Positions 16,989-56,790 of a stretch of 64,000 nt of DNA are shown here, one piece after another. Both the position numbers and the translations under genes were made by a program. The DNA lies in contig JAQUNP010000001.1 of assembly GCA_028717565.1 (NCBI GenBank), forward strand, positions 112,997 through 176,996. Reading direction: 5' to 3'. Source of the stretch: Patescibacteria group bacterium (GTDB taxonomy: Bacteria; Patescibacteriota; Kazan-3B-28). Each line of letters starts with the position of its first letter. Position 1 is the first letter of the stretch. A model generated the notes under the pieces. That model made no database searches and was not told the DNA's origin. It saw only the letters and a list, made by a program, of their open reading frames with translations.

Positions 16989-16991
16989 GCT

Positions 16992-25993: not shown

Positions 25994-25998
25994 ACAAT

Positions 25999-27171: not shown

Positions 27172-27172
27172 G

Positions 27173-28300: not shown

Positions 28301-28319
28301 GGGTGTATTATATCAGGTT

Positions 28320-33073: not shown

Positions 33074-33985
33074 ATGCGTAAAGACCCCCTGCAAAATCTG
33101 AAGGTAGTAGCAGTCGTGGGGCCGACCGCATCAGGCAAATCGGAGTTAGCCGTGGAGCTAGCTCGGGTTTTTAACGGTGTAGTCATCTCCGCCGACTCCC
33201 GTCAAATTTACAGGGAAATGGACGTTGGCACCACCAAAATTAGCCGCGAAGAGATGCAGGGTGTCCCCCACTATATGCTGAGCATCGTTGAACCCAACCA
33301 AGAATTCAGTGTCAGCGCCTATCAAAAGTCGGTTATGAATTTATTAAATCGAATCGCGCACAAAAACTTGAAAGCCAAGTCCCCAATTTTACCGCTTATA
33401 GTTGGTGGTACCGGACTTTATGTGAGCGCCATTGTTGATGGATATGAATTTTCTAACGTCAAACCTGATGCTGGGCTGCGTGCCAAATTAAATGCCTCGC
33501 CTTTGGGCCAATTGGTTCAACAGCTCAAGAAATTTGATCCCGACACCACTGTGGATCTAAAAAATAAACGCCGAGTTATTAGGGCTTTGGAAATCTTCGT
33601 AGCTGGTGGCAAGCCTCCGACCCGAACACGGCCTAGTTTTTCAGTTTTGAAGATAGGACTCGGCAACAACCGCCAAAAAAATAGTCGCCAAATCCGTGAA
33701 CGCATCTGCACTATGAATATTGACGCTTTGGTAAAAGAAACCAAACGGCTACTCCGCCGACGATATAAATTGTCACTGCCAGCGCTATCTGCGTTGGGGT
33801 ATCGGGATGTCAAAGATTTTATTGATAAGAAAATCACAAAGCGTCAGCTCCAGGATAAGCTGGTACGGCTTCACAGCCAATACGCCAAACGCCAACTCAC
33901 ATGGTTTAAGCGCGATCCCCAGATAAATTGGGTGACGAATATAAATGAAGCAGAAAAGCTGGTGAGTCAGTTTTTATTCGACTAA
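33074..33985 (+). CDS. miaA: tRNA dimethylallyltransferase
   Basis: P-loop GPTASGKS, then ...ISADSRQIYR.MDIGT.K.... Confidence 0.9.
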   Translation: MRKDPLQNLKVVAVVGPTASGKSELAVELARVFNGVVISADSRQIYREMDVGTTKISREEMQGVPHYMLSIVEPNQEFSVSAYQKSVMNLLNRIAHKNLKAKSPILPLIVGGTGLYVSAIVDGYEFSNVKPDAGLRAKLNASPLGQLVQQLKKFDPDTTVDLKNKRRVIRALEIFVAGGKPPTRTRPSFSVLKIGLGNNRQKNSRQIRERICTMNIDALVKETKRLLRRRYKLSLPALSALGYRDVKDFIDKKITKRQLQDKLVRLHSQYAKRQLTWFKRDPQINWVTNINEAEKLVSQFLFD

Positions 33986-34780
33986 CTCCAACTCTTTCTC
34001 TTTTTCTGTCACCGGCTGAGTATCCGCAAGCGGTGCCGAATAAATATACCCCACGGCATCGTAATCTCCACGCAATATATTGCGTTTTATTTTAAATAGA
34101 TCAATCAGGGTGCGAATGGCCTCACGACTGGCAAACTTACTTTCCGGATCATTGTGCCACTCAATCCCGACCTCTTTGATCTTGTAACGAAGGCGTCGCG
34201 CTATCATTAAGGCCTCGAAATCAAACCCCCATCGATTGATAGTCACATTGGCAAATATGTTTTTGCCGGCCGTATGTTCAAACAACTTAAATCCGCACTG
34301 TGTGTCACAGACACCCGGGACAGCCAAGAGGCGGATCAAAATGTTTGAGAGCCGAGATAGAATAATCCGATACCAAACTTGGGATACATGAATTTTTGCC
34401 CCTGAGCAATGTCTGGAACCAAACACTACTTGGTAATCTGTGACAAACGGCCAGAGCTTTTCAATTTCACTAATGGGAGTCGCATTATCTGCATCCGCAA
34501 ATAACAAATATTTGCCTCGAGCCATCAGAATACCATTTTTTACCGCTCCGCCTTTACCTAAGTTTTGGGGATTTTTAACTAGGTACAAATTAGGCCAGCC
34601 CTCTTTGATAATCTCAACAATTGGTACAGTGGTATCCGTGCTAGCATCGTTGACCACGATAATTTCATAAGAATAGTTTTGGGCGTCAAAATATTTGCGC
34701 ATGGCCACCAGAGTTCGTCCGATGCGACGCTCTTCGTTGTAGGCCGGGATAATGACTGATAGTTGTGGCTGAATATTCAT
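33974..34780 (-). CDS. GT2 polyprenol-phosphate sugar transferase (GtrB/DPM1-like)
   Basis: LSVIIPAYNEE ... IIVVNDASTD ... FADADN. 4-bp overlap with the downstream GtrA-like gene. Confidence 0.85.
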   Translation of the reverse strand: MNIQPQLSVIIPAYNEERRIGRTLVAMRKYFDAQNYSYEIIVVNDASTDTTVPIVEIIKEGWPNLYLVKNPQNLGKGGAVKNGILMARGKYLLFADADNATPISEIEKLWPFVTDYQVVFGSRHCSGAKIHVSQVWYRIILSRLSNILIRLLAVPGVCDTQCGFKLFEHTAGKNIFANVTINRWGFDFEALMIARRLRYKIKEVGIEWHNDPESKFASREAIRTLIDLFKIKRNILRGDYDAVGYIYSAPLADTQPVTEKEKELELVE

Positions 34781-35217
34781 TTTTTAAAAACTAGGTATTT
34801 ATACGCTAGAAAATTCCAGATTAAGACAATGCCCGCTGAAACTGCCTTAGCCAAATTGTAGCTCCAAGTAAATGATATCTCGAAAAATGGATTGTGCACC
34901 AAGCAGCTAGTACCAAAGTGTACCAGCAGGTTCGACAAGCCCAAACCCACCACACTTACTATTACAAAGGTCGGGAACTGACGCAGATGCTGTGGTTGAG
35001 TGTCTTTAAAGGTCCAGTATTTGTTGAGGCAGTAGCTCACTATCACTGCGCTAGAAAAAGAAATCGTATTGGCCCAAACTGGAGCCCAACCAGCCAGTTT
35101 GATTAATAAATTCAAAATCCCGAAGTCCACTCCCGCATTGAGCATACCAGTAATAGAAAAACGTAATATCTGACCCCAAAGCGGATGATTAATATTTAGC
35201 ATCGATTCTTTTTGCAA
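34777..35217 (-). CDS. GtrA-family small membrane protein
   Basis: Four TM segments and FSITGMLNAGVDFGILNLL, typical of the GtrA family. Confidence 0.8.
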   Translation of the reverse strand: MQKESMLNINHPLWGQILRFSITGMLNAGVDFGILNLLIKLAGWAPVWANTISFSSAVIVSYCLNKYWTFKDTQPQHLRQFPTFVIVSVVGLGLSNLLVHFGTSCLVHNPFFEISFTWSYNLAKAVSAGIVLIWNFLAYKYLVFKK

Positions 35218-35929
35218 TTAAAACCAAACTGCTCCCCCATGGTAAGCCCCAACCGCGACCCAGCCAACTGGCCTCTATTTGACTCAGCGCCACTAAAACC
35301 CCGGTCAGCCGACTTTGAGAGCTGGCTGTTTCGTAAGTGGTGCGCCGCTGCCCCCGCATCAACCAGCGGACTGCCACAAAGACCGGGAAAGTAAAGAAAA
35401 AAAACGGGGATAAAAATTTTATTTCAAAACCAGCGCATTCCACTTTCTGGCGCAAATCCAAGGCGCTATATCTTCGGAAATGGTGCAAGACCTGATCATG
35501 GGTTGTAAATAACCAAGCATGAGCGGGCACAGTTAGATACAGCCAACCATTGGGCTTAATAACTCGATGCCAGTTTTGTAGGGCCACGACATCATTTTGT
35601 ATATGTTCCAAGACATCAAAGGCAGTCACAAGATCATAGGTCGTAGCGGTTAAAATATTGCTGGCATCGCCTTCAATCACATGGCGGTAAGCCCTGTGAG
35701 CGCGACAAAAGGCCAGGGCTGTTGGCGAATTGTCTAGTCCATCTACCTGCCCCCAATCTCGTAGCCACGAAAAATTAACTCCTGCCCCGCAACCTAGATC
35801 CAATAGTTGCAGGTTGCAGTGTGGAGATACAAATCCCCCCAACACTCTGCCTAGAACCTGTCGTCTACCAATATGCCACCAGTAATTGGTTTCTTGGGCA
35901 TGCATTTCGGCCACTTCTTGAACATCCAT
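35189..35929 (-). CDS. Class I SAM-dependent methyltransferase
   Basis: LLDLGCGAG ... VTAFDVLEH ... IKPNGWLYLTVP. The longer ORF (to 36094) runs antisense through tRNA-Pro, so the start is set at the internal Met (MDVQEV...). Confidence 0.75.
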   Translation of the reverse strand: MDVQEVAEMHAQETNYWWHIGRRQVLGRVLGGFVSPHCNLQLLDLGCGAGVNFSWLRDWGQVDGLDNSPTALAFCRAHRAYRHVIEGDASNILTATTYDLVTAFDVLEHIQNDVVALQNWHRVIKPNGWLYLTVPAHAWLFTTHDQVLHHFRRYSALDLRQKVECAGFEIKFLSPFFFFTFPVFVAVRWLMRGQRRTTYETASSQSRLTGVLVALSQIEASWLGRGWGLPWGSSLVLIAKRIDAKY

Positions 35930-36004
35930 ACCATCTATTATACCTTTATTCGTAAGCCTGGTTTCGGGTATAATAATGAAGTTTTGAAGCGAATTTTTGA
36001 TAAT

Positions 36005-36079
36005 CGGGGCGTGGCGCAGTGGTAGCGCGCTCGCTTTGGGAGCGAGAGGTCGCACGTTCGAATCGTGTCGCCCCGACCA
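36005..36079 (+). tRNA. tRNA-Pro(TGG)
   Basis: CGGGGCGTGGCGCAGTGGTAGCGCG CTCGC TTTGGGA GCGAG AGGTC GCACGTTCGAATCGTGT CGCCCCG ACCA. Confidence 0.85.
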
Positions 36080-36094
36080 GAAGATAATACCCAT

Positions 36095-37852
36095 ATGAAT
36101 TTAGTTGCTGATATAAAAGCCGAGCTACACAAGACCATTACCAAGTTATGGCCGAGTGTTGATATCCCGGAAATCGTAGTCATTACACCACCTAAAGAAG
36201 AATTTGGCGACTATTCCTGTGCTGTGGCCTTGAGTTTGGCCAAAGTTATCAACGGCTCACCCATGCAGGTAGCCCAACAGCTTAAACAAAAGTTGGGGAA
36301 GATGCCGTTTGTGGATAACGTAACCTTAACCGAGCCAGGGTTTGTAAACTTCAATATCAACTATCCTAAACTAGTCGAAAAACTTCTGGACAAAAACTTG
36401 CCAAGGCCAAAGCCAAAATCCCTTAAGATTTCCGTGGAGCATACTTCAGTCAACCCCAATAAAGCTGCCCACATCGGACATCTAAGAAATGCCTGCCTCG
36501 GAGACAGTTTCGCCAGATTGGCAAAATTGATAGGGCATCAGGTTGAGGTTCAAAACTACATTGACGATCTGGGTGTGCAGGTAGCTGATAGTGTAGTGGC
36601 CTTTGAGACCCTTGGCGACGCGCCGGAAGATATTCCGATTGATAAATGGATGTGGCAGATTTATGCGGACATTTCCACTAAGTATGAGGGGAACCCCAAG
36701 CTCTTAGCTAGACGAGACGAAGTTTTACATGAAATGGAGCGTGGCGAGAGCCAGACAGCGAAAAAGATTGTTAAGGCCATGGTAGCCGCGCAGTTGCGTA
36801 CTTTTAAACGTTTTGACATCAACTACGACTTGCTGGTTTATGAAACGGATATCATAAAAAATAAGCTTTGGGATAGTTTGTTCACGGAGTTAAAAACCAA
36901 AAAGCTCATTGCCCAGGCCACCTCTGGTGATAATCAGGGGGCTTGGTTGGTTGAGTTTGGCGAAACTGAACGAGAGAACAAGATTTTGGTCAGGAGCAAC
37001 GGCCTTCCCACATACACGGCCAAGGACTTGGCCTACTACATGTGGAAGTTCGGCATTTTTGAAATGCCTGGCTACAAGCGTATTTTGAAACAAGTAGACG
37101 AGGTCGTTAATGTGGTGGACGAACGTCAAACTTATCCTTTAGCGGTAGTGAAGCACATGTTAGCTCAACTTGGGTACACCAAGGAGGCACAGCACGCGTT
37201 TCATCTCGCCTATGGTGTGGTGAAACTCTCCGCTAAGGCAGTGGAACAGCTCGGCAAAAGTCAGGGTAACAAATCGTTGAGACCGGCGTCGATGTCCGGA
37301 CGAGCTGGCATTGGCATAATGGCAGATGACCTGCTAGATACTGCGCTTGCCTTACAAACCAAACGATTTAATACACCTCAAAAAACCGCCGAACAAATTG
37401 CCATGGGCTCTATCCGTTACTATATGTTAAAAGCTCGTCCCCAGCGTGAAATCGTTTTCGACTTTGATGAGGCCTTACAAACCGATGGCAATACCGGAGT
37501 TTATCTCCAATACGCTTATGCACGAGCAAACAATATCCTAGACAAAGGGTCGGCGCATACCCCATCCCCTAGCTCGTTAACAAATTTAAACAAAAACGAG
37601 CGACGGTTGGCTAAAACCCTGGCCGAAAAAGATCAGGTATTGGCAGCGGCCTTTAGAGAGTACGACCCTTCCCAGCTGTGTGACTACGCTTATGAGTTAG
37701 CATCAACATTTGCAAAATTCTATGAAACCAGCCCTGTGCTGCAGGCCAAGCCAGATATTCAGAGTCTTCGTCTTGGTTTAGTGCGGTCTTATTTAAATAC
37801 ACTAAGGGAGATTATGGAGTGCTTGGGCATTCCCACCCTGCCTAAAATTTAA
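36095..37852 (+). CDS. argS: Arginyl-tRNA synthetase
   Basis: HIGH motif NPNKAAHIGHLRN and the ArgRS anticodon-binding C-terminus. The ORF's first 10 codons overlap tRNA-Pro, so the start is set at MNLVADIKAEL. Confidence 0.93.
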   Translation: MNLVADIKAELHKTITKLWPSVDIPEIVVITPPKEEFGDYSCAVALSLAKVINGSPMQVAQQLKQKLGKMPFVDNVTLTEPGFVNFNINYPKLVEKLLDKNLPRPKPKSLKISVEHTSVNPNKAAHIGHLRNACLGDSFARLAKLIGHQVEVQNYIDDLGVQVADSVVAFETLGDAPEDIPIDKWMWQIYADISTKYEGNPKLLARRDEVLHEMERGESQTAKKIVKAMVAAQLRTFKRFDINYDLLVYETDIIKNKLWDSLFTELKTKKLIAQATSGDNQGAWLVEFGETERENKILVRSNGLPTYTAKDLAYYMWKFGIFEMPGYKRILKQVDEVVNVVDERQTYPLAVVKHMLAQLGYTKEAQHAFHLAYGVVKLSAKAVEQLGKSQGNKSLRPASMSGRAGIGIMADDLLDTALALQTKRFNTPQKTAEQIAMGSIRYYMLKARPQREIVFDFDEALQTDGNTGVYLQYAYARANNILDKGSAHTPSPSSLTNLNKNERRLAKTLAEKDQVLAAAFREYDPSQLCDYAYELASTFAKFYETSPVLQAKPDIQSLRLGLVRSYLNTLREIMECLGIPTLPKI

Positions 37853-37974: not shown

Positions 37975-38031
37975 TAGACTCGTTATAGGGGGAAGTCTGA
38001 AAATGTATAAATTATGGGGGCAAAAACAAAC

Positions 38032-38655
38032 ATGAAAAATAAGATCCAAAAGTTTCTTCAAGCTAGGGCGGAAATGAGCCGTCAGCTGTTGGTGTTGGAA
38101 ACCGTACTGTTCGCTACCGTAATTATGGCGGTGGCGACTATTCAAATAGTTAATGCAGATACCACTGCTGACACCAACCTAGCCCAGAACGTAACTGCTG
38201 GCTCCCTGTCCATTACTGGCCCGTCACAGCTAAACTTCAATGATGGTTCTATTGGCGAAACTACTATTGCTAATATTACCACTAGCGATCCTGTCAGAAT
38301 CGCCGATACTCGTGGTAACTTGGATGGCTGGGAAGTAACTGGCTTTTTCAATACCAACTGGCTCAAAACTGGTGATAGCAATGTTCAGATGGACATCGGT
38401 ACAGCTGATCTCTACTGGTATCCTGGAAATATGACAGTGCAAAATAATACCGGAAATAATGATGGGGTCAACAAGGGCAGTAACGCCCCCTTCCAGGGTA
38501 TTACCAATGCGCTTACGTTGGCAACTTCTAACAACTCTCATGCCGACAATGGCGCTGGCTCGTTCAATTTGTTTAATATTGAGTTCAAATACTCCATTCC
38601 AATCGGCGCTGAAGCCACTGACTACACCACCGACATGCGCCTGACCATCGCTTAA
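38032..38655 (+). CDS. Small secreted WxL-like domain protein (CscB/C-like)
   Basis: Signal peptide ending ...IQIVNA|DT. Motifs DTRGNLDGWEVTGFF ... DYTTDMRLTIA-end parallel the C-termini of the two large proteins at 41707 and 45136. The ORF track starts at 38014. Confidence 0.6.
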   Translation: MKNKIQKFLQARAEMSRQLLVLETVLFATVIMAVATIQIVNADTTADTNLAQNVTAGSLSITGPSQLNFNDGSIGETTIANITTSDPVRIADTRGNLDGWEVTGFFNTNWLKTGDSNVQMDIGTADLYWYPGNMTVQNNTGNNDGVNKGSNAPFQGITNALTLATSNNSHADNGAGSFNLFNIEFKYSIPIGAEATDYTTDMRLTIA

Positions 38656-38720: not shown

Positions 38721-40248
38721 ATACACTTACATTATGGTAAAAACAAAAAAAGCTTTGACGCAGCCACGGTCTACTTTGGTCCGCACCAGTTGGCTGGAGA
38801 GAATGCTTCTACTATTGTTATTAGTCGCCGGAGCCAGACCTCTGCTTGACCCGGATTTTGGCTGGCATTTGCGCTCCGGGATCGATTTATTGAGAAACCT
38901 AAGTGTGCCGAAGTTTGATAGCTATGCCTACACATTACCTAACTGGCCCTGGGTCAATCATGAGTGGTTGGCCGATGGCTTGGTGGCATTTATCTACCAA
39001 AATTTAGGCGCCCTGACTCTAATCTTAGGGTTTGCGGTGTTAATTGCTTTTATCTTCTTGTTGGCCGCCTCACTAAATCGGGTTGAGTTGAAATATAAGA
39101 TAATCGCTGGTTTAATCGCTGTTTTAGCTGCTTTGCCGATCGTGGGAGTACGTATGCAGGTTCTAACTTTGTTGGGCATGGCTCTGACCATGTGGCTTAT
39201 ATATCGATATCGCCGAGGCGAGGTTAAGCACTTGTGGTGGATACCAATCATTTTTTTGGCTTGGGCCAATCTGCACGGCGGCTTTATGATCGGTCTGGTA
39301 ATTTTAGCGCTGTTCTTTATAACAGAGCTTGCAAAGTTTTGGCTACATCAGACCCGACCCGCCATCTACAACAAACTGCGGATAGTTGAAGACACGCTTT
39401 CAGCAAGAAAGCTAAAACACCTCTTGGGTATAAGTATCTTGTCAGGACTAGCCACATTGATTAATCCATATGGTTGGGGGCTGTATTTAGATTTTTACAA
39501 GCTATTTATCAATCCTTTTGCCATTAGTCACATTAGTGAGTGGCAACCAGTCACGGTTGATAACGCCATCAGTATTAACTTCTTTATTTATTTAGCGGTT
39601 TTTGTAGTGGTAATGTTTTTGGCTTATCGGAAGGTTGAGCCGACTCGGTGGGTCTTAACTTTGGTGTTTTTATACCTGTCGTTTTTATACTGGCGCAATA
39701 TGCCTTTTTTCATGGTTATGAGTGTCGGTTTTTTTGCTGAAATTATTCAGACACACACCGCTCTGGTCTTTGATAATGTAGTGCGCAACAAAACAGTTGT
39801 TACCATTGTCACTGTGGTAGTGGCGGTATTGGTAGCCCAACGGATTGCCGATGTTGTTCCCAAAGCACTTGATGCCAACCTAAATTTTAAAGCCGGCGGC
39901 TACCCGATTGATGCGGTAAATTGGATAAAAGCTAATCCCGATAAAATCGGAACTAAAATGTTTAACGAGTACGGACAGGGCGGGTTCTTGGTTTGGCAAT
40001 ATCCCGAACAACAAGTATTTGTAGACGGTCGGATGCCGTTTTGGGTAGAAGGAGATAAATTCGTCTTCTTTGATAATCAGCTCGCTTTGGATGCTCAACC
40101 TGGTTCAATCGAGATGTTAGAAACGAAATACGGTGTGGACTGGGTAATTATTAAGCCCACTCGCCCACTTGATTGGGCACTTTCGGGTCAAGCCACGTGG
40201 GCAAATGTATATCGAGACCCTTACGCAGTCATCTACAAAAAGCTATAA
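38710..40248 (+). CDS. Polytopic membrane protein, probably a GT-C-fold glycosyltransferase (ArnT/PMT/GtrII-like)
   Basis: About 12 TM segments. First extracytoplasmic loop has an acidic motif LLDPDFGWHLRSG. Large C-terminal soluble domain. This is a recognition-level call. Confidence 0.45.
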   Translation: MFLLYTYIMVKTKKALTQPRSTLVRTSWLERMLLLLLLVAGARPLLDPDFGWHLRSGIDLLRNLSVPKFDSYAYTLPNWPWVNHEWLADGLVAFIYQNLGALTLILGFAVLIAFIFLLAASLNRVELKYKIIAGLIAVLAALPIVGVRMQVLTLLGMALTMWLIYRYRRGEVKHLWWIPIIFLAWANLHGGFMIGLVILALFFITELAKFWLHQTRPAIYNKLRIVEDTLSARKLKHLLGISILSGLATLINPYGWGLYLDFYKLFINPFAISHISEWQPVTVDNAISINFFIYLAVFVVVMFLAYRKVEPTRWVLTLVFLYLSFLYWRNMPFFMVMSVGFFAEIIQTHTALVFDNVVRNKTVVTIVTVVVAVLVAQRIADVVPKALDANLNFKAGGYPIDAVNWIKANPDKIGTKMFNEYGQGGFLVWQYPEQQVFVDGRMPFWVEGDKFVFFDNQLALDAQPGSIEMLETKYGVDWVIIKPTRPLDWALSGQATWANVYRDPYAVIYKKL

Positions 40249-40256
40249 TTGAATCC

Positions 40257-41693
40257 ATGGGGACACCAAATAAATTAGTACGGTCATTGATCTTTTTACA
40301 GGGACTCCTGTTTTTGTTTGTGCCAACGGCAACGTTGGCCTTGGCGGCTGGAGGCATTGGCGTAGTACCGCATGTCACAGAAGAGCGTCCCGATCGGGGC
40401 GGTTGGTTTCTATACGAGGTTGACCCTGGTGAGGTTATTCAAGACGAGGCCCTACTCATCAACAACAACGATCAGACAACACATTTAACACTTGATCCAC
40501 TAGATGCGGCGCTGACAGCCGATGGAGCTTTTTCTTTGATCCGAGGCCCCGAGGACAACAAGGACATTGGCACATGGATAAAAATCGAGCAAACCGAGTT
40601 TGACTTAGAACCGCATACTCAGCTAACGGTGCCTTTTACCATTGAAGTGCCTCAAACTGCGGAAGTCGGTGACCACATTGGGGGCTTGGCAGTTTACGAA
40701 TCCGAGAAGGAGCCGGAAACGGTCTTAAAATCTGGTGGCGCCAAGGTAGGTATCTCCACACGGGTTGGAGCTCGGATTTATCTGACTGTCGCGGGTGATA
40801 TCGTGCGTGATTGGAGCATCTATCACAAGTTGTTTTACGGACAAGCAGATAAGATAAAATTTCGGTTTACGATTGCCAACCGAGGCAATATTCGTGCCAA
40901 CTTATTTATAAAGGAAGGCCGTATTTATAACATTTTTGGCCTGTTCGATAAACAAGAAGATATTTCTCTGGCGCAGGTCTTCCCTCGTGAGACAGTCAGC
41001 AAAACTTTCACCTGGCCGGGCAAGGGCCGACCGCTTTTTGGCCCGTATTTGGCGATTTTTACAATCGAGGATAAATACGTTCAGGTTAACCCCAACTCGC
41101 ATGTCATAGTCCCTGAAGTCGAACCTAAAACCATTTGGATGATCACCTTCTTTATTCCTTTCACCCAAACTGCGGTCTTACTGGGGCTGCTATTCATTGC
41201 TTGGTTCTTGTATCGCTTTATAACCTGGAAACGGTTGAGCAACTTGGCCAGACGACCAGTTAAGAAATACTCTGTTAAAGCTGGTGATACTTTAGTAGAT
41301 ATCGCCGAGGACTTTGGTGTGTCATGGAAACTGGTAGCTCATTTAAATGAGCTGAAACCACCATATAGTTTACGCCAAGTGAAGGTGCTATATGTACCCG
41401 ACGCCAGTGGTGAGAGACGCAGTATTCCAATTACTGGTTTCTGGACATTTATTACCAAGCCCGTAGCTAAAATGTTCCGAAAACGGACACAGCCCAAGCT
41501 ACAAGTGGCATCTGATGCCGTAACGGAGGAGTACATTATCGTTATCGATAAGAGCGATAAGCGTAATGACATTGAGACTTTTACAGGACTGAAATGGCAG
41601 ACCATTGCCAAATACAATCACCTGAAGTCAACCTTTAAATTAAGAGTTGGCACGGAATTAAAAATTCCGGGTAAAAAACCAAAAAAGAAGTAA
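40257..41693 (+). CDS. Csc-type (DUF916/DUF3324-like) cell-surface protein with a C-terminal TM anchor followed by two LysM repeats
   Basis: Signal/anchor MGTPNKLVRSLIFLQGLLFLFVPTATLALAAGG. Two beta-rich domains. TM ITFFIPFTQTAVLLGLLFIAWFLY followed by a basic stretch. LysM repeats YSVKAGDTLVDIA...ELKPPYSL and FTGLKWQTIAKYN.... Start is set at the internal Met because the ORF-track start overlaps the previous gene. Confidence 0.5.
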   Translation: MGTPNKLVRSLIFLQGLLFLFVPTATLALAAGGIGVVPHVTEERPDRGGWFLYEVDPGEVIQDEALLINNNDQTTHLTLDPLDAALTADGAFSLIRGPEDNKDIGTWIKIEQTEFDLEPHTQLTVPFTIEVPQTAEVGDHIGGLAVYESEKEPETVLKSGGAKVGISTRVGARIYLTVAGDIVRDWSIYHKLFYGQADKIKFRFTIANRGNIRANLFIKEGRIYNIFGLFDKQEDISLAQVFPRETVSKTFTWPGKGRPLFGPYLAIFTIEDKYVQVNPNSHVIVPEVEPKTIWMITFFIPFTQTAVLLGLLFIAWFLYRFITWKRLSNLARRPVKKYSVKAGDTLVDIAEDFGVSWKLVAHLNELKPPYSLRQVKVLYVPDASGERRSIPITGFWTFITKPVAKMFRKRTQPKLQVASDAVTEEYIIVIDKSDKRNDIETFTGLKWQTIAKYNHLKSTFKLRVGTELKIPGKKPKKK

Positions 41694-41706: not shown

Positions 41707-43797
41707 ATGATATATGGGAGGTATCAACATCTAGCAAATGGAGTGGCTTGGTTTCTGGCTGGGTGGCTCGCTTTTGGCTTCCCATTTTCTTATTTTCAGT
41801 TCACACCCTCTGTTCGGGCCGGTGGTGCGACCATGTACCTGCTGTGGGACTCGACTAATGGCGATCCGCCAGATGGCTGGGTAACACAATCTGGATCCGG
41901 CGACCCGGCCTATCAACGCTTTTTGCGAGGAGACGCGGCGGTTTCGGCTTTGAGCACGGGCGGTAATGAGGCAGGTATCCACAATCATACGTTAAGCAAC
42001 ATGACTGTCAGCACCAATATCGCTGGCGCGGCCTATAAAAATAACCGAGCTGATACGGTGGACTGTGCACTAAGTCACAGTCATAATATTTTGGCTTCCT
42101 TTATGGATGATGCCACCATCTTGCCCAAATACCGGGATTTGGTCCTAATCATGTACGAAGCCGGCATGCCAGATTTTTTGCCAGCTGACGTGATAGTTGG
42201 CTTTGCTTCTGGAGCCAGCATCCCATCTGGATTTACGCAATATTCATCACAAAACACCAACTTTGTCCGTCTCGCAGACGCCACTGGCAGTAGCACTGGT
42301 TCCAACACTCACACCCACACTAATGTCGCTATCATATTGGATGTTTGTGACACAATTTCTCTGAATAATCGCGGTGCCAACGTGGTGGCCAGTGAGAAGC
42401 ATTTTCATCAATACTCGGGGACCTCACCGACTGGCGACCACACCCCTCCCAGCACCGGCTTGCCCCTCTATAGTGTGGATGACGCCGATACTCCCCTCCC
42501 CACCGATATGATAGCGTTCTTTAACGCCTCTCCCCCAACGTGGTGGACCTCTTTAAGCGAATCGGGGGGAGATTTTTATCAAAAATATATCTACGGCAAT
42601 AGCACTTATGCCACTGGTACCGGTAGCGCTACCCACAATCACCCAGGTGTTACCCAACTGGTAACTGGTGCTGCTGTCGATCCAGGTCCGGTTCTAGTCG
42701 ATCCGGGAACTCCGTCCGCCTCGGCCGCCTCAAGCACACATACACATACCATTACTACGCCTACCTACTCCAATGAAAATAATGACCCGCCATATATTAA
42801 CGTAGTCGTGGCCAAATATGATCCGCCTGACTTAACTTGGTCATCAGGCATCTTGGATAGTTACACTATCTACGAATCAGGAACTTTGACCTGGGGAGCA
42901 GGCACGGAGGTGTGCTCGGCCACTTTAACTGATGACAACTCCTCGACTGTAGAATGTAGTGGCGATGGCATTGACGATTCTACCCAATACCGGATTGATG
43001 TTGTATTAAAAAACGTTGGCTCGGTAGCCGCTCATATGTATGGAGGTAGCGATACCGTAACTTTTAAAAATATTATTGGCGGCTGGGCGGGCACCACACC
43101 CACCATCGGCTCATGCGGATTTTATGATTCTGGTTCAGATGATACCGGCACACCATCATGTACCCCAGCGTCAGGCGCCAACGACGTAATTTTGTCTAAT
43201 ATCGGAGCAAGTAGCGAGGTGATTTTGGCCGCCTCCTCGGGATTGGAGGGATTTATGCTGATTGTCACAACTGACAGCGATGCAACTACCAGCTCTACTA
43301 GTTATATGGACACTATCATTGACACAAATAGTGAGGATTCTAGCAAAATCACTGTTTCGTTGGCTTCGGCTCTAGGGATCACGGCGCCCGACAACATAGT
43401 TTTGGCTGCTTCTAATCCCGGAGCCGTTAGTGAAACCACTTTCGAGACAGATGAATTGGTTGTAGTCACCGATGGGGGCAGTGGGTGGAGCTTGACGGCT
43501 GCCATGCAGACCACTTTTAGCGATGGTGGCTCCAACACTATTCCGGATGCGAGTGTCTATCTACATAAAGACGGCAATGTAGAAACCGAAGATGAATATA
43601 CGATTTGGTCTGGCGATGTAGAAAACGTTACCGAGACCGATGAAACTGTCTCGTTAGACGAATCCAGATCGGTGGGGACTAGAAGCAGCGGTACCGGTGG
43701 TGACACCACCAATGTTCGGCCAACTATCAAAATAATTATGCCTGTAGATCAGGCAATCGCTGACTATGATGGTGTCATCCGATTTACCGTAGTATAA
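41707..43797 (+). CDS. Large S/T/G/D-rich surface protein with a C-terminal WxL-like module
   Basis: N-terminal hydrophobic anchor or signal. C-terminus ...VVTDGGSGWSLTAAM ... DYDGVIRFTVV-end. GGAAGGGGG RBS upstream. Confidence 0.6.
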   Translation: MIYGRYQHLANGVAWFLAGWLAFGFPFSYFQFTPSVRAGGATMYLLWDSTNGDPPDGWVTQSGSGDPAYQRFLRGDAAVSALSTGGNEAGIHNHTLSNMTVSTNIAGAAYKNNRADTVDCALSHSHNILASFMDDATILPKYRDLVLIMYEAGMPDFLPADVIVGFASGASIPSGFTQYSSQNTNFVRLADATGSSTGSNTHTHTNVAIILDVCDTISLNNRGANVVASEKHFHQYSGTSPTGDHTPPSTGLPLYSVDDADTPLPTDMIAFFNASPPTWWTSLSESGGDFYQKYIYGNSTYATGTGSATHNHPGVTQLVTGAAVDPGPVLVDPGTPSASAASSTHTHTITTPTYSNENNDPPYINVVVAKYDPPDLTWSSGILDSYTIYESGTLTWGAGTEVCSATLTDDNSSTVECSGDGIDDSTQYRIDVVLKNVGSVAAHMYGGSDTVTFKNIIGGWAGTTPTIGSCGFYDSGSDDTGTPSCTPASGANDVILSNIGASSEVILAASSGLEGFMLIVTTDSDATTSSTSYMDTIIDTNSEDSSKITVSLASALGITAPDNIVLAASNPGAVSETTFETDELVVVTDGGSGWSLTAAMQTTFSDGGSNTIPDASVYLHKDGNVETEDEYTIWSGDVENVTETDETVSLDESRSVGTRSSGTGGDTTNVRPTIKIIMPVDQAIADYDGVIRFTVV

Positions 43798-44191: not shown

Positions 44192-45139
44192 ATGAAACAA
44201 CCATCGCGTTCTATCCCCATCCTGATTCTCTCGAACTTAGTGCTTTTAGGCGCACTGATTTTTGTATGCGTGTTTTGCATCAACCATCCCCACAGTTCAA
44301 AATATCCACTGGTAGATATCACTAGGGACTTTATACCACAGGAAGATTTCATCATTAATATTCAACCCCTACGTGAGCAGGTGCGGGAAATGATTGATCA
44401 GTATGGAGCTAATCGGGTCTCGGCCTATATCGAATTTTTAAACACGGGCTCTAATATCGCTGTGAACCCCGACTTAAAACTTTGGTCGGCTAGTTTGGGT
44501 AAGGTGCCTTTGGGCATGACAGTAATGAAAAAGGTGGAAAATGGGTTGTGGGATCTAAACAGCGAATTGGTGCTGTTTGAGGGAGATCGAGACCCTTTGT
44601 CTAGTGATGCCACAGACCCCCTGTTTCGCTACCCTATCGGTACCCGTTTTACGATTGAAAAGCTAATGGAATATCTACTAACCTATTCTGACAATACTGC
44701 CGGGCAGATTTTAACACGTAACCTAAGCCAAGATGACACTCAATTGATTATCGAGGATACTGGCGCCGAAGAGCTGTTTACTGAAGAAGGCAAGATGAGC
44801 TCCAAAGAATATGCCCGACTATACCGAGCGCTATACACCTCTAGCTTTTTGAACCGAGACGGTTCACAAAAAATCTTGGACTGGTTAGCCAATGCCAGTT
44901 TCAGAAAATATCTTTCAACCGGCATACCAGAAGGTATTTCGTTTGCTCACAAATACGGGGAAAATCGAACTGATTTAGTCATCGCCGACTCGGGCATTGT
45001 CTATCTGCCGAACCGACCGTTTTTAATGGTGGTAATGGTGCAAAAGTTAGATGATTCGGCAGCGGAGGATATAAAAGCGCGGGCCTTTATGCACGACATA
45101 GCCGAGACAACATATAACTATTTTGCCAACTATCAATGA
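44192..45139 (+). CDS. Class A beta-lactamase-like serine hydrolase (PF13354-like), membrane-anchored
   Basis: N-terminal TM. S-x-x-K (WSASLGK) and SDN (YSDNTAG) motifs. Third box HKYGEN sits where KTG/KSG is expected. ATGA start/stop overlap with the next gene. Confidence 0.6.
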   Translation: MKQPSRSIPILILSNLVLLGALIFVCVFCINHPHSSKYPLVDITRDFIPQEDFIINIQPLREQVREMIDQYGANRVSAYIEFLNTGSNIAVNPDLKLWSASLGKVPLGMTVMKKVENGLWDLNSELVLFEGDRDPLSSDATDPLFRYPIGTRFTIEKLMEYLLTYSDNTAGQILTRNLSQDDTQLIIEDTGAEELFTEEGKMSSKEYARLYRALYTSSFLNRDGSQKILDWLANASFRKYLSTGIPEGISFAHKYGENRTDLVIADSGIVYLPNRPFLMVVMVQKLDDSAAEDIKARAFMHDIAETTYNYFANYQ

Positions 45140-47538
45140 TACGGCGGGGATTTTATTGGCTGGTGGCTTTCATGCTGACTGTTCAGCTGGTTTTGCCCAG
45201 TAGCTTAGTTACCCAGTTGCTTCGGGACTGTAACATAGTAGATGTTTTATATCTTTCTTCAAAAAGCCACAACCTAGCCGATAACCAGTTAGCCGGTTCA
45301 CAAAATGCACACGCTCAGTCGGCCAGCCAAACTACCTTTTATTTTAAAAACGATACCAGAAGTGCAAACACCTACTGGGGTGTAGCCGGTCCTACAGTGG
45401 ACAACAGCACTGATACAGTAGAGATTACGGTAAGTGGTGCTACCACAGCCGGCGCCATGCATCCAATTGCTGGGCCTATAGTTCCCGCCACTACCAGTGA
45501 CAGCGTAGTGGGCACTAGTTTGGGAGATAGCAACGCGGATTTGGCATGGTACAAAACCTTTATTATGCCCATTGCCTCCGGCACCCAGTTTACGGCTTTG
45601 ACCATGTTTCAGGTTGCCGCATCGTTTGACGAAAGCAACGCGGCCGCCAATGCTTACGCCAGAGCTTTTGCTTATGTGTATGACTCCGGCAGCAATTCCA
45701 ATGTCCAAACCCTAGCTGGTCCGACTAGTCACAGTACTGAAATCGGTACCAGTGATCAAGGTAAGATTTGGTACTTAATGAATGCAGTGGGAGTTACTCC
45801 CTACACGACGGATAACAATGACTTTTTAGCCGTTGAAATCTGGGTGGATTTCCAGCATACCACCACCACGGCCTACACTTGCACATTCCGCTGGGGAGGT
45901 AACACGAATATAGTGGACAATACGGCCAACACTACACCAGCCAGTCGGATTACCATTAGCAATACTACTGTTGACACCTTTGACCCTCTGTGGCTCTTGC
46001 CGACTAATGCGGACCATGAGGTCACGCCTAATGCCCATCAAACCGGCGATTCATTCCAGGGCGGCACTTGGGAGGGCAGACGTATGAGTACTACGGCTGG
46101 CGGTGGCGCCGAGCTCAAAAGCCAAGCCGTATCCACATCTGTTGGCAACTGGCGGATGAATACTTTCGTCTCTCCCCCACTAGCTGCCCAGACGATTCCT
46201 GCTGGCAACTGGGTCATTCATATGCATGGTAACGAATCCAGCACTTCGGCTAATGCTAGATTTCGAAGTATGATCTACATTTGGAAAAATGACGACTCCG
46301 GCATCCGCGGGACCATTAAGTCAGTGGGCAATGCTTCGACCGAATGGGGCACAGCCACCACGAATAATCAAGTGGAAGATGTGGTGGCGGGCTCGACAGT
46401 AGCTGTGAGTGCTGGCGATAGATTGGTATTAGAAATGGAAGCTGTTACCGTTACCTCCTCTGGCGCTTATACTACCAATCACCGCTTTGGAGCAGATCCT
46501 ACAACACCTGGCACTTCGGTATATGATAGTGCCATCCTGCCACCGATGAACTATTCCTCTACACCCACTCCCCTGCAGTTTTTAACTGAAGATTTCAGCC
46601 AGACCCACTATCACTTCGATGAGGACAATGATGGCGAAACCCATAGTGCGTGGACTGATTCGGTGGGCAGCATTGCTGAAGATACTCCTGGCACTTATTC
46701 GGTCAGTACTAATTTTCGACTTAGAATTCAAATTGCTTCCACAGGCGGTGAAAATGCTGGTCTGGTTCCGTTTTTATACTATCAAACCAAAAGTCCGCCT
46801 GGTTCGTGGACTCTGGTCACCAATAGTTCAACTGACATCCAAACCTCCCTGTCAGGTAATTTTGACCAAAATACAGCCACCAGCAGACAGCTAACTGACC
46901 TCACTAGTAGTGGATGGGATTTTACTGCTGGTAGAATGATTGAGGACTCTGGGGGAACTGTGTCCAACACTTCGATGAATGCCTGGAGTTTTACCGAATT
47001 TGAATGGTCTTTGACTGGTGTTAATGCAAATATCTATTTGTTCAAAGCCACCTATGCCGGTAGTGATTTCGGTTTGTATGCGAGCACCCCAGAAGTCACC
47101 ATCACTGCGGGGTCTCCACTAAGCGTTTTTGCTCCAGCGGCACAAGACCTTGGCTCTCTTAGTCCAGGCGATGTGGGGCAGTACACTTTTGGGGAGCCTG
47201 TCATTATTACTGACGGTGGCGCAGGATGGTCACTAACGGCAGTTATTACTGTGCCTTTAAATAACGGTAAAACTAACCTAGATAGTTCTAATGTCAAACT
47301 AAGAAAAGACGGGGTTGTCGATGGTGGGAGTGATGTTTATACCATCTGGGATAATGAGGTCAGCTACGTTTCAGAAAACGAGGAAACGGTTGGTTTAGAC
47401 ACGTCTCGTACCGTCGGGATACGCAGCCGAGGCCGAGCTAGTGAGATGACCTTGGTGAGCCCTAGTTTGCAAATTGAAATACCGGTTGCCCAACAGACCG
47501 GAGATTATCGAGGAGTCCTCGAGTTCACTGTCGTTTAG
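45136..47538 (+). CDS. Large surface protein with a C-terminal WxL-like module, paralogous at its C-terminus to the 41707 gene
   Basis: N-terminal anchor. C-terminus ...IITDGGAGWSLTAVI ... DYRGVLEFTVV-end. Confidence 0.6.
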   Translation: MIRRGFYWLVAFMLTVQLVLPSSLVTQLLRDCNIVDVLYLSSKSHNLADNQLAGSQNAHAQSASQTTFYFKNDTRSANTYWGVAGPTVDNSTDTVEITVSGATTAGAMHPIAGPIVPATTSDSVVGTSLGDSNADLAWYKTFIMPIASGTQFTALTMFQVAASFDESNAAANAYARAFAYVYDSGSNSNVQTLAGPTSHSTEIGTSDQGKIWYLMNAVGVTPYTTDNNDFLAVEIWVDFQHTTTTAYTCTFRWGGNTNIVDNTANTTPASRITISNTTVDTFDPLWLLPTNADHEVTPNAHQTGDSFQGGTWEGRRMSTTAGGGAELKSQAVSTSVGNWRMNTFVSPPLAAQTIPAGNWVIHMHGNESSTSANARFRSMIYIWKNDDSGIRGTIKSVGNASTEWGTATTNNQVEDVVAGSTVAVSAGDRLVLEMEAVTVTSSGAYTTNHRFGADPTTPGTSVYDSAILPPMNYSSTPTPLQFLTEDFSQTHYHFDEDNDGETHSAWTDSVGSIAEDTPGTYSVSTNFRLRIQIASTGGENAGLVPFLYYQTKSPPGSWTLVTNSSTDIQTSLSGNFDQNTATSRQLTDLTSSGWDFTAGRMIEDSGGTVSNTSMNAWSFTEFEWSLTGVNANIYLFKATYAGSDFGLYASTPEVTITAGSPLSVFAPAAQDLGSLSPGDVGQYTFGEPVIITDGGAGWSLTAVITVPLNNGKTNLDSSNVKLRKDGVVDGGSDVYTIWDNEVSYVSENEETVGLDTSRTVGIRSRGRASEMTLVSPSLQIEIPVAQQTGDYRGVLEFTVV

Positions 47539-47564: not shown

Positions 47565-48584
47565 ATGCGACTTAGGCTACAGTTCCAGATATTTTTATGG
47601 GTTGGCTTGGGGCTTTTGCTGTACGCACTTTGGCTGACCCTCCGAGTCCCTGCAGTTCAGCATCTAGTCGAGCGGCTAGTGGCCGATCAACCCGTCACTG
47701 TTTTAGCTGGTGGTGATGTGAATTTGGGCCGACAAACCGGACAAGAAATTTTGGCTGGGAATATAGATTATCCTTTTCAAAATATCACTGGCATTTTACA
47801 GAGTGCAGATATTACTTTCGTAAATCTCGAGAGCCAACTGGCTGACCTCAACGGTGAAACCCAATCCCCCACTAATGAATACCGCTTTGCCGGTCCGCCC
47901 CAAGGGGCGCTTGCGTTGCACAATGCGGGTATAGATATTGTATCGATTGCCAATAACCACATGTGGGATTATGGCCAAGAGCGTTTGCAAGAAACCATTA
48001 ATAATCTGAATGCTCAAGAAATTGTATATGTGGGTGCCGACATGTTACCAGAAAATCGTTTCGCAGCCAAAATTCTTGAGGTACGTGGTCAAAAAATCGC
48101 CTTTCTGGCGTTCACTGATTTGCTCAACGGTTATGAGAAAAGTGGTGCTGACCAATATGTCGCTTTCGGCGATGAAGACGCATGCATAGCCGAAATCAAA
48201 CAAGTCCGCGAATTTGCTGACTGGGTGCTAGTTTCCCTGCATGCTGGAGCCGAATACACAGCCAAACCTACTGCCCGAACTATTGAACTAGCTCATACTT
48301 TTATTGATGCTGGCGCTGATGCAATTTTGGGTCACCACCCTCATGTCCCTCACCCAATCGAGATCTACAAAGATAAGCCCATTTTCTACTCATTGGGTAA
48401 TTTTGCTTTCTGGCAGCCATTTACTTTCTGGACGCAAAATAGTTTTTTGATAAAGCTGGAGCTAACCGAGCCCCGACAGTTGGATTACGAGATCATCCCA
48501 GTTAAAGCAGGTTGGCAACCAGAGATGCTGACCAAAAGTGATGACATTGCCACACTCATGACACGGCTACATTCCCAAATCTGA
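47565..48584 (+). CDS. CapA/PGA_cap family metallophosphatase (poly-gamma-glutamate-type capsule biosynthesis protein)
   Basis: N-terminal TM. GGDVNLGR ... SIANNHMWDYG ... LHAGAEY ... GHHPHVP ... YSLGNF. Confidence 0.8.
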   Translation: MRLRLQFQIFLWVGLGLLLYALWLTLRVPAVQHLVERLVADQPVTVLAGGDVNLGRQTGQEILAGNIDYPFQNITGILQSADITFVNLESQLADLNGETQSPTNEYRFAGPPQGALALHNAGIDIVSIANNHMWDYGQERLQETINNLNAQEIVYVGADMLPENRFAAKILEVRGQKIAFLAFTDLLNGYEKSGADQYVAFGDEDACIAEIKQVREFADWVLVSLHAGAEYTAKPTARTIELAHTFIDAGADAILGHHPHVPHPIEIYKDKPIFYSLGNFAFWQPFTFWTQNSFLIKLELTEPRQLDYEIIPVKAGWQPEMLTKSDDIATLMTRLHSQI

Positions 48585-49626: not shown

Positions 49627-51093
49627 TTGCCCATTTTGATGCAACCGAATCACAATACCCCGCAGCACTACTTGGAAATGGCCGTTGCCATTGTGGCGGT
49701 GGTAGTGATTGGTGCTTTTGGCGTGTTGAATAATTTTCACACACACGCTGCGACCACTTTAACAACTGACGAGCAGACCAGAGTGGACGAATATCTGGCT
49801 CGGTTGTGGTTGGAAGAGAATGGTGACACGTATGCCAATGAGCTGACCCAAATTGATCTGGACTATGTTGCCGCCGTACAGGAAATTATGTCCCAAGAGC
49901 CCACCCCAACCCTCGACGAGGACATCTTGGCCAAAGCCACCAGATCGGATGCGGCCGAGTTTGTGTATGCTTTGTTCGGGACGACTGGTTATGATGCCGC
50001 GGATGATACCACTATGTCCGAGACCGGTTTCACAACCGATACCAAAATTATTACCGAGGTAGTTGGGGCCTTGTCTCTCAACAGCGAGACCTATTCGCCT
50101 GGTGCCCTTTTGGCCACCGCTGCAAGTTACGCCGACCCAGAGTTTGACGGCCGCACCTTTTCTAGCGAAGAGGTGGAATCTATGACGGAACTGGCTAGTA
50201 ATTTTGCCGAGGAACAAAATCTCCCAGAGCTAATCAACGATGTCAATATGTGGCTCAGTGAAAAATCGGCTCCGCCAAGCAAAAGTTGGTGGCAAAGATT
50301 CATCGATTGGATCAAGGGCTTATTTAAGCCAGCTGAGGCACAGGCCCTTATCGCAGCCATGTTGCCAATCGTGGGGCAGATTCAACAAAGTTTGGTGAGC
50401 TATTTGCAAGCCAACCCGGGTCTTATGTCCACTTCGTCCGGGCAAAGCTGGACCTGGGGAAAGCCAGAGGCACTAAATGAACAAGAACAAGCTTTAGTAG
50501 ACGAGCTGGAGTGGCTGAATGAACGTTTGAAATTAAATGAGGAGGCACTGGCCAAAGCCGAAAAGGAGGGTAAGAAAGTCACGGCCGCTATTCATAGACG
50601 AGCCATTCAGCTGATAAAAGAGAAGATGTTAGGCGTCATGCAGAAATTAAATGAGCTACGAAGAAAGGCCAAAGCTATTCGCGATGCCAAAGTGGCTCGA
50701 GACGAACAGGAGCGTAAAGCTGCCGAGCGGGCCAGTCAACGTAGCCGCCGATCACAAAGTGATGGTCAAAAGGCCTACGAGGAGGCCAAGAGTAAGGCCA
50801 ATAAACCGCCCACTTATGACGAATGGCTGGACAAACTAGCAGAGCTCTTGGGAGGAGATGATATAAAACCACGAAAGCCCATGCCTGAGCCAGAGCCGTT
50901 ACCAATCAGCCCACCAGGGCTGGGTGAACCCTCGATTCCGGGTCTGGACAATCCGCTCATTCCGAGCGCACCGGAGCCGAATGAAAATATTACTATCCCA
51001 CCGATTGAGCCGGAACCAGCCGAGCCAGTCATACCCACCCCTACCCCTCTACTCAATGAGTCACTAGAACCAGGACTAAATACCAGTAACTGA
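49627..51093 (+). CDS. Membrane-anchored coiled-coil protein with a Pro-rich tail (paralog 2)
   Basis: TM MAVAIVAVVVIGAF, acidic region, coiled coil, tail ...KPPTYDEWLDKL...PMPEPEPLPISPPGLG.... Same architecture and motifs as the preceding gene. Confidence 0.55.
   Translation: MPILMQPNHNTPQHYLEMAVAIVAVVVIGAFGVLNNFHTHAATTLTTDEQTRVDEYLARLWLEENGDTYANELTQIDLDYVAAVQEIMSQEPTPTLDEDILAKATRSDAAEFVYALFGTTGYDAADDTTMSETGFTTDTKIITEVVGALSLNSETYSPGALLATAASYADPEFDGRTFSSEEVESMTELASNFAEEQNLPELINDVNMWLSEKSAPPSKSWWQRFIDWIKGLFKPAEAQALIAAMLPIVGQIQQSLVSYLQANPGLMSTSSGQSWTWGKPEALNEQEQALVDELEWLNERLKLNEEALAKAEKEGKKVTAAIHRRAIQLIKEKMLGVMQKLNELRRKAKAIRDAKVARDEQERKAAERASQRSRRSQSDGQKAYEEAKSKANKPPTYDEWLDKLAELLGGDDIKPRKPMPEPEPLPISPPGLGEPSIPGLDNPLIPSAPEPNENITIPPIEPEPAEPVIPTPTPLLNESLEPGLNTSN

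Positions 51094-53569: not shown

Positions 53570-56790
<3,221 letters not shown>

Follow-up and report, generated by a model that had tools for sequence, protein, structure and literature searches.

LysM is treated almost universally as an extracytoplasmic module that binds cell wall or chitin, and the proteins that carry it are automatically annotated as 'LysM peptidoglycan-binding'. A gene of a Patescibacteria bacterium of the Kazan-3B-28 lineage raises the question of whether this treatment always holds. In a stretch of 64,000 nucleotides from contig JAQUNP010000001.1 (hereafter the window), the open reading frame (ORF) at 40257..41693 (+) encodes a protein in which two LysM domains follow a single transmembrane (TM) helix. 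On which side of the membrane these domains lie, and what they would bind there, is the subject of this analysis. The protein is identified as a membrane anchor of the WxLIP type whose LysM domains are predicted to lie in the cytoplasm and, taken jointly, this identity and this topology are considered highly probable. By prediction, therefore, the LysM domains are found elsewhere than in their usual extracytoplasmic location. The explanation of the whole protein as the WxLIP anchor of a WxL-like cluster, with a cytoplasmic LysM tail that would bind a ligand at the inner face of the membrane, is preferred with moderate confidence.

The ORF was confirmed and its product has 478 aa. With the upstream gene stopping at 40248, the ATG at 40257 lies 9 nt past that stop, and the N-termini of the homologs ('MGASKIHR...') agree with it; an alternative TTG start at 40173 gives a longer ORF that would overlap the upstream gene. 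From the N-terminus, the product has a signal peptide and an ectodomain that is all-beta, then its one TM helix (302-324), and after a basic linker come the two LysM domains. In the AlphaFold2 (AF2) model, which was built on 36 homologs and has a mean pLDDT of 86.4, only strands are found at 34-299, followed by a helix (302-331), LysM1 (334-381), a further helix (395-411) and LysM2 (425-471). The features along the gene are:

40257..40346 (+), signal peptide, aa 1-30, MGTPNKLVRSLIFLQGLLFLFVPTATLALA, from the hydropathy scan and a basic n-region (K6, R9)
40347..41156 (+), WxLIP-type ectodomain of two Ig-like beta-sandwiches, from PF06030, profile, Foldseek and AF2
41160..41228 (+), single TM helix, aa 302-324, FTQTAVLLGLLFIAWFLYRFITW, from Hessa sums, AF2 and homology
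41229..41267 (+), basic juxtamembrane linker, aa 325-337, KRLSNLARRPVKK, directly after the TM helix, from K/R counts
41268..41399 (+), LysM1, aa 338-381, the best Pfam LysM stretch, beta-alpha-alpha-beta in AF2
41439..41489 (+), inter-LysM helix, amphipathic and basic, aa 395-411, FWTFITKPVAKMFRKRT, no TM helix, from AF2 and hydropathy
41529..41669 (+), LysM2, aa 425-471, the second Pfam LysM stretch, also in AF2
41670..41693 (+), lysine-rich C-terminal tail GKKPKKK and stop codon, from the translation

WxLIP proteins are composed of a DUF916 domain (PGBD), a DUF3324 domain (HBD) and a C-terminal TM helix, and are encoded together with a small and a large WxL protein (PMC10599100). The ectodomain of the protein studied here is a two-Ig unit of this type (DUF916/CscA-type), divided into a PGBD/DUF916-like part (aa ~31-167) and a second domain (aa ~168-300). 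In the query, PF06030 (WxLIP_PGBD, DUF916) scores 27.1 bits, that is, 0.2 below the gathering cut-off (GA) of 27.3. The same family is matched by all 36 homologs of the first search at E<=1e-3 (best 1.1e-15), and LysM by 34 of them. When the family profile was compared with solved structures, it matched EfmWxLIP1 (9i25_C), residues 1-149, with E 2.6e-8. In the Foldseek search of the AF2 model against the PDB, the WxLIP chains 9i25_C and 9i1y of Enterococcus faecium came first (E 2e-14) and generic Ig-like folds ranked below them; the alignments span 275-279 columns over chains of 251-267 residues, with a target-normalised TM-score of 0.49. The ectodomain is modelled as all-beta with pLDDT mostly >90, and its pI is 4.98. 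The second domain (168-300) is assigned by the beta-sandwich fold of the AF2 model, with no match of PF11797 (DUF3324/HBD) in the query at E<=1. These results bear out the 'Csc-like' label of the original prediction, as well as its beta-rich exported domain behind an N-terminal signal. The signal peptide was found by hydropathy, its position and A-x-A-like end are kept in homologs, and its putative cleavage site lies between ALA and AG.

A Kyte-Doolittle (KD) and Hessa scan of the query showed just two hydrophobic segments, namely the signal peptide (~7-38) and residues 293-324. The best 19-residue Hessa sum of the TM helix is +0.12 in the query and goes down to -3.5 in homologs. The helix occupies the same position as the C-terminal TM helix which ends the LysM-less WxLIP relatives. 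The single TM helix with a basic stretch directly after it, as originally called, stands; the first part of the called segment (ITFFI of TIWMITFFI) is in fact the last strand of the second Ig domain (Ig2). A helical hairpin within the 31-residue hydrophobic stretch 293-324 is out, since AF2 makes 291-299 the last Ig2 strand with pLDDT ~95. A tripartite sorting signal of the sortase/exosortase-like kind (FIPFTQ, TM helix, basic cluster) was also considered because Pro301, directly before the TM helix, is near-invariant. The segment has neither the extreme C-terminal position nor the LPXTG-type motif of such a signal, and Pro301 is therefore read as a helix N-cap.

Since one TM helix follows a Sec-type signal peptide, the chain enters this helix from outside. 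The query has 7 K/R in the 20 aa after the TM helix versus 1 in the 15 aa before it, and nearly all full-length homologs show the same bias (0-1 before, 4-9 after). The tail at 325-478 has a pI of 10.18, with 33 K/R versus 15 D/E. A second TM helix missed in the tail is ruled out: hydropathy and AF2 give none, and no 19-residue window of the tail in the query, the inter-LysM segment included, reaches KD 1.2 or a Hessa sum <3. Even in P0012 and P0157, whose homologous segment is the most hydrophobic, the Hessa sum is +6.8 and the segment holds three Pro. The helix between the LysM domains has a hydrophobic moment of 0.63 in its best 14-mer (family mean 0.59 vs 0.49 for shuffles) and may lie on the membrane surface.

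The most independent of the five lines of evidence on the topology is provided by relatives with two TM helices. An exhaustive profile search gave 1199 cluster representatives at E<=1e-30, and 181 relatives were analysed for their architecture. Among these, 23-25 are of the form SP-WxLIP-TM1-LysM-TM2 (SP, signal peptide), with LytR_C (PF13399) located after TM2 in nine of the ten scanned. Elsewhere, LytR_C is found behind the extracytoplasmic LCP domain in cell-wall ligases and, in LytR_C-only proteins, behind a single TM helix (PMC7831098, PMC11481543); by analogy with such architectures, it is probably located outside here too. With LysM between two TM helices and outside-type domains at both ends, the LysM of these relatives would therefore be inside. 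Summed over 23 of them, the two flanks that face LysM hold 115 and 105 K/R, versus 36 on the ecto side of TM1 and 64 on the side of LytR_C. Members with the complete SP-WxLIP-TM1-LysM-TM2-LytR_C order are, among others, P0165, P0178, P0184, P0190 and P0191, from Moranbacteria and other Patescibacteria; in some members there are three or four LysM repeats (P0176, P0188).

Taken together, hydropathy, a conserved positive-inside charge bias, homology to the WxLIP anchor, AF2 and the two-TM relatives all place both LysM domains, computationally, on the cytoplasmic side, in agreement with the original prediction. As there are relatives that end at the same TM helix with a short tail, the LysM modules are considered as additions onto the cytoplasmic tail of an already existing anchor.

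The two repeats pass the LysM profile threshold, PF01476 scoring 56.9 bits against a GA of 20.9 over two stretches, 338-381 (the best) and ~425-471. In the AF2 prediction both adopt the beta-alpha-alpha-beta order of strands (E) and helices (H), that is, E334-339/H346-352/H357-363/E377-381 for LysM1 and E425-429/H436-443/H447-453/E467-471 for LysM2, with pLDDT of ~88-94. The pI of LysM2 is 9.46. Conservation along the protein is highest in LysM1, with a mean majority-residue frequency of 0.70 vs 0.60-0.64 for the Ig domains of the ectodomain, which is an indication that the tail is under selection and not decaying. Within it, W357, K358, A361 and P369 are nearly invariant and N364 is invariant.

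In the 164 TM-proximal LysM domains of the family, the motif residues are kept at high frequency (P 98%, Y 87%, N 100%, W 95%) and the surface W-K-x-L-A-K-x-N-x-L-K-x-P-Y is conserved at 75-100%. LysM domains bind GlcNAc-containing glycans by way of their GD(T/S) and N-x-L loops. The position of the GD(T/S) Thr is occupied by T in 35%, N in 18%, D in 18% and H in 13% of these domains; in the query, LysM1 keeps GDT and LysM2 has SDK there. T532 of SpoVID, the counterpart of this Thr, is needed for peptidoglycan binding. Judging from these residues, glycan binding may be altered or lost in the LysM domains of the family.

The (E/K)PPYSL motif, to which attention had been drawn as an unusual feature of a lineage-specific LysM subfamily, is real and strongly conserved, and it is also present (as EPPYSL) in the LysM protein of 133 aa at 16992..17393 (-). 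Its lineage specificity is rejected, because the periplasmic LysM of Escherichia coli NlpD follows an identical pattern, F/W-R/K-x-L-A-x-x-N-x-(L/I)-x-x-P-Y-x-L, and both LysM proteins of the window are best matched in NCBIfam by ActS, NlpD and DipM. Neither, then, is the motif unusual. The 133-aa protein has a basic N-terminus, a TM helix and a C-terminal LysM, an order of segments that indicates the ordinary topology with LysM outside. The motif thus occurs in an outside-facing protein and in the inside-facing tail, and is therefore a mark of the NlpD type of LysM, not of lineage or of topology. A weak NCBIfam match to YneA extends over the TM helix and the start of LysM1 (E 0.0019), and similarity to spore_VI_D is negligible (E 0.21). 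The gene of the 133-aa protein is located directly upstream of a DUF218 (SanA/YdcF-like) gene with a gap of 3 nt (16404..17393, -), and this arrangement suggests an envelope-related pair.

The TM-then-LysM order, for which a homolog search had been proposed, is found in ~150 of the 181 relatives, most of them one-LysM proteins of ~380-400 aa. It is a large conserved family, which the original prediction had missed. The relatives named with this order come from Kazan, Moranbacteria and unclassified Patescibacteria, and in the databases they are called only 'hypothetical' or 'LysM peptidoglycan-binding domain-containing protein'. With each GTDB species represented by one genome, a scan found the full SP-WxLIP-TM-2xLysM protein at 15 loci, belonging to Kazan bacteria and to unclassified metagenome-assembled genomes of Patescibacteria, some labelled Saccharibacteria. 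The classical WxLIP which ends at the TM helix is found in other Patescibacteria, in Actinomycetota and in a Paenibacillus relative, and also as P0035. WxL and WxLIP proteins have been reported almost only in Lactobacillales and Bacillales (PMC10599100), and in the literature searched no paper ties DUF916 or WxL to Patescibacteria or to LysM. What is apparently new is the combination of a WxLIP with LysM, its predicted topology and its breadth; intracellular LysM domains and WxLIP proteins were already known separately.

In the search for the neighboring genes, every two-LysM locus with upstream sequence showed the same order, that is, a small protein of ~210 aa, a polytopic protein of ~500 aa, the WxLIP-LysM protein and a large protein. 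The three neighbors in the window are:

38014..38655 (+), WxL-like protein, small (213 aa) and secreted, its gene opening the module, from sub-threshold PF13731 and synteny
38734..40248 (+), GT-C fold membrane glycosyltransferase, 504 aa, similar to oligosaccharyltransferases (OST), DPY19 and ArnT, from AF2 and Foldseek
41707..43797 (+), large (696 aa) surface protein, variable in its N-terminal part and ending in a domain of ~150 aa, from hhalign

These neighbors would form a WxL-type cluster with a GT-C glycosyltransferase, which had also been missed. A WxL cluster has been defined as a minimum of one WxLIP together with two WxL proteins within four genes (Hassan 2023), and the Csc cluster was defined earlier (Siezen 2006). 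As far as the sequences allow, the module would fit the small-WxL / large-WxL / WxLIP organisation of the Firmicutes clusters. The match of the 213-aa protein to PF13731 (WxL) stays below the threshold (E 0.024); among 13 orthologs of the small protein no other family recurs, and 5 of the 13 match PF13731 at E<=0.1 (best 4e-4, 20.8 bits vs GA 25). The protein carries the motif DTRGNLDGWEVTG ('DTRG..GW.VT'), and the synteny of its gene with the WxLIP-LysM gene is conserved. When the small WxL-like family was compared by hhalign with the family of the C-terminal domain of the 696-aa protein, a probability of 96.4% was obtained (E 1.1e-9, 142 columns). This homology is visible only by profile-profile comparison, the pairwise BLAST of the two proteins being not significant (E 1.3). 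The C-terminal ~150 aa of the large protein show 50-58% identity across loci. Its variable N-terminal part contains repeated H-x-H motifs (IHNHT, THTHT, THNHP, THTHT). An LPXTG (CscD-like) protein was not found in a regex scan of the six-frame ORFs of the window, in which no plausible gene has a C-terminal sorting signal.

The 504-aa protein matches no Pfam or NCBIfam family. Its AF2 model (pLDDT 92.4, pTM 0.90) gave STT3, PglB, AglB, DPY19 and ArnT as the top Foldseek matches (E 2e-6 to 2e-3; TM-score 0.5-0.6 to OSTs), and sequence searches of the PDB returned nothing for the GT-C profile, the small WxL-like protein or the profile of the small-protein family. The 504-aa protein has the polytopic fold and the acidic residue in the first external loop by which GT-C enzymes are recognised, D41 in 'DPDFGWH' of this loop being invariant. 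The OST-specific WWDxG motif was not seen in it, and it is therefore not filed as an oligosaccharyltransferase. It also has a small C-terminal soluble domain, and its homologs in Nitrospira are 35-40% identical.

Wherever a two-LysM locus has upstream sequence, the GT-C gene is directly upstream of the WxLIP-LysM gene; this is so in none of 22 LysM-less or one-LysM loci, and the association is confounded by phylogeny. The GT-C enzyme as an obligatory partner of the LysM tail is weakened by its absence at these 22 loci and beside the one-LysM relative P0036; it is a feature of the two-LysM Kazan-type cluster and not of the LysM tail in general. In the complete genome of candidate division Kazan GW2011_GWA1_50_15 (L001 5663..9428), the tandem WxLIP-LysM paralogs P0028 and P0029 have each their own small WxL-like gene before them, with one GT-C gene common to both.

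A glycan-synthesis cluster is located at 23954..29702 (-) and 33974..36094 (-), with a DUF4012 protein, two GT4 and a Bac_transf gene, and then a GT2 and a methyltransferase gene. Bac_transf (a polyprenyl-phosphate sugar-phosphate transferase), the two GT4 and the GT2 sit 9-14 kb upstream, and through them the GT-C enzyme might be provided with a lipid-linked donor. In a plain count, N-X-S/T sequons number five in the 213-aa protein, six in the 696-aa protein and none in the WxLIP-LysM protein, which is suggestive beside an adjacent OST-like GT-C enzyme.

In the preferred explanation, the signal peptide would send the two-Ig ectodomain outside the cell, where it presumably holds the small and the large WxL-like neighbors on the wall, as proposed for the WxLIP of Firmicutes. 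The ancestral C-terminal stop-transfer helix would span the producer's own membrane, and the cytoplasmic tail, normally very short, would have grown by the addition of an NlpD-like LysM, then an amphipathic basic helix and then another LysM, each of which would sit at the inner membrane face. The membrane-tethered LysM would then bind a ligand on the cytoplasmic face. The favored one would be a HexNAc-containing lipid-linked precursor, that is, lipid II or the undecaprenyl diphosphate (Und-PP)-glycan donor of the adjacent GT-C enzyme, and the alternative a membrane-associated envelope-synthesis protein. Binding would couple the placement or assembly of the surface complex to the sites of envelope synthesis. 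A lipid-linked glycan precursor on the inner leaflet, suggested by analogy with SpoVID, is put forward tentatively. More doubtful is the extension to a device spread over the Patescibacteria, in which a WxLIP with cytoplasmic LysM would read lipid II or Und-PP-glycan and so target or gate the assembly of the WxL-type surface or host-attachment complex, which may be glycosylated, where the envelope is actively being made.

Several points weigh against this explanation. The topology comes from hydropathy, charge bias, homology and AF2, and the two-TM/LytR_C relatives belong to other lineages (e.g., Moranbacteria), outside this orthologous group. The WxL identity of the neighbors is sub-threshold in Pfam, and the profile of the small-protein family matches no solved WxL structure. 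Only 35% of the TM-proximal LysM domains of the family have Thr at the GD(T/S) position, and LysM2 of the query reads SDK there. As the GT-C gene is not adjacent in P0036, a GT-C-specific role of the LysM is not general. Within the 64 kb of the window, to which this search was confined, there are no peptidoglycan-synthesis genes.

Some of these points lead to a different role for the same topology, in which the LysM folds of the cytoplasmic tail no longer bind glycans and the tail anchors or organises the surface complex from inside. Its variants would make the tail a protein-protein adaptor (e.g., for cell-wall or division enzymes), a binder of anionic lipid or nucleic acid, or a Kbp-like ion binder; taken jointly, they are possible without being likely. 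The poor conservation of the Thr beside the well conserved W-K-x-L-A-K-x-N-x-L-K-x-P-Y surface speaks for such a role, as does the very basic nature of the tail (pI 10.18). Precedents are given by the SpoVID LysM, whose binding to a further partner, the protein SpoVK, does not depend on the residue that it needs for peptidoglycan, and by the non-glycan role of LysM in Kbp. However, the conserved W/F-K/R...N...P-Y pattern is common to the periplasmic NlpD LysM and may be a mere scaffold of the NlpD type, LysM1 of the query retains GDT, and no partner of the tail was identified.

A location of the LysM domains outside the cell would require that the helix is not in the producer's membrane, in which case the domains would bind the wall of the producer or of a host cell. 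For Firmicutes WxLIP, Hassan et al. 2023 considered the TM helix 'very unlikely' to reside in the bacterial membrane and proposed its insertion in the host membrane (PMC10599100), although this is itself an in-silico proposal. LysM normally acts outside the cell, the domains are of the NlpD type like that of the outside-facing 133-aa protein of the window, and Patescibacteria are typically episymbionts. On the contrary, a helix of ~23 residues in a Sec-exported chain, with 7-8 K/R behind it, is a stop-transfer anchor of the classical kind, and a tail exported freely is difficult to reconcile with the second TM helix and LytR_C after LysM in relatives, together with the K/R-rich flanks of their LysM. 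The tail also differs from the ectodomain in its charge (pI 10.2 vs 5.0). Given the stop-transfer features and the two-TM relatives, this location is quite unlikely. Finally, the architecture might be suspected to be an artefact that joins a WxLIP gene falsely to a separate LysM gene, as WxLIPs described to date stop at the TM helix and the database gene call P0001 (468 aa) has a slightly different start. Nevertheless, the independent assemblies of 15 species representatives, with the complete Kazan genome CP011216 among them, have the same continuous ORF, the same architecture is seen in more than 100 clusters at 50% identity, and the linker with LysM1 is the best-conserved region of the protein. 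Misassembly, frameshift and a wrong gene call are thus rejected, and conservation over independent assemblies leaves this explanation effectively refuted.

The window also contains features apart from the module. The 23S rRNA match at 53581..56781 (-) is 3201 nt long versus a model of 2925 positions, and the RNase P RNA at 30558..31101 (+) has 544 nt versus a model of 367 positions; these lengths beyond the models show that both RNAs carry sizeable insertions. The 5S gene is located 532 nt from the 23S. A tRNA-Pro at 36005..36079 (+) runs over the GTG that was assigned mechanically as the start of the arginyl-tRNA synthetase ORF at 36065..37852 (+), so the true start of the synthetase is probably further downstream. 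Two downstream ORFs, of 800 aa at 45136..47538 (+) and of 488 aa at 49627..51093 (+), have no Pfam match at E<=0.01 and are placed with a class-A-like beta-lactamase-family gene (44192..45139) and a PGA_cap gene (47565..48584).

For the WxLIP-LysM family, then, a domain annotation that is blind to topology is misleading. The WxL/WxLIP surface systems would reach from Firmicutes into the candidate phyla radiation, and the protein described here offers a testable candidate for an inside-outside coupling between envelope synthesis and the display of surface or attachment proteins in ultrasmall episymbionts. It would add a membrane-tethered case to the very few known intracellular functions of LysM (SpoVID and Kbp). 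Should the coupling device be true, it would be the first case in which the LysM of an integral membrane surface protein serves as a sensor that faces the inside.

In comparison with the Firmicutes WxLIP (CscA/DufA; PDB 9i1y, 9i25), the protein shares the signal peptide, the two tandem Ig-like domains and one TM helix, and its gene likewise adjoins those of a small WxL-like protein and of a large protein with a C-terminal WxL-like domain. In Firmicutes the TM helix is terminal, whereas here it is followed by a predicted cytoplasmic tail of 154 aa with two LysM domains. Further differences are the lack of a PF11797 match and the PF06030 score 0.2 bits under the cut-off, the Patescibacteria host, the GT-C gene inserted in the cluster and the absence of the LPXTG (CscD-like) protein.

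Among the LysM proteins, SpoVID, the spore-coat checkpoint protein of Bacillus subtilis, has a LysM that works on the cytoplasmic side of a membrane, as is predicted here. SpoVID is, however, a soluble coat protein that is sporulation-specific and has neither TM helix nor ectodomain, and its LysM is acidic (pI 4.8), whereas the WxLIP-LysM tail is basic (pI 10.2). Kbp (YgaU) is also cytoplasmic. It is a K+-binding protein of E. coli, composed of a BON and a LysM domain (PMC6562680), and resembles the present case in being a bacterial LysM protein, with a non-peptidoglycan role of the LysM in Kbp (PMC6562680); it differs in being soluble, with LysM paired to BON and with no membrane anchor or surface domain.

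The closest LysM sequence type is that of the periplasmic amidase activators NlpD, ActS and DipM, the pattern shared with E. coli NlpD being F/W-R/K-x-L-A-x-x-N-x-(L/I)-x-(A/P)-P-Y-x-L. The LysM domains of these proteins are periplasmic and fused to LytM/M23 domains, whereas the protein studied here has no catalytic domain and its LysM domains are predicted to be cytoplasmic. In YneA and in the 133-aa protein at 16992..17393, a TM helix is closely followed by LysM, as in the WxLIP-LysM protein. There the basic residues precede the TM helix and LysM is outside, whereas here they come after a TM helix which the chain enters from outside.

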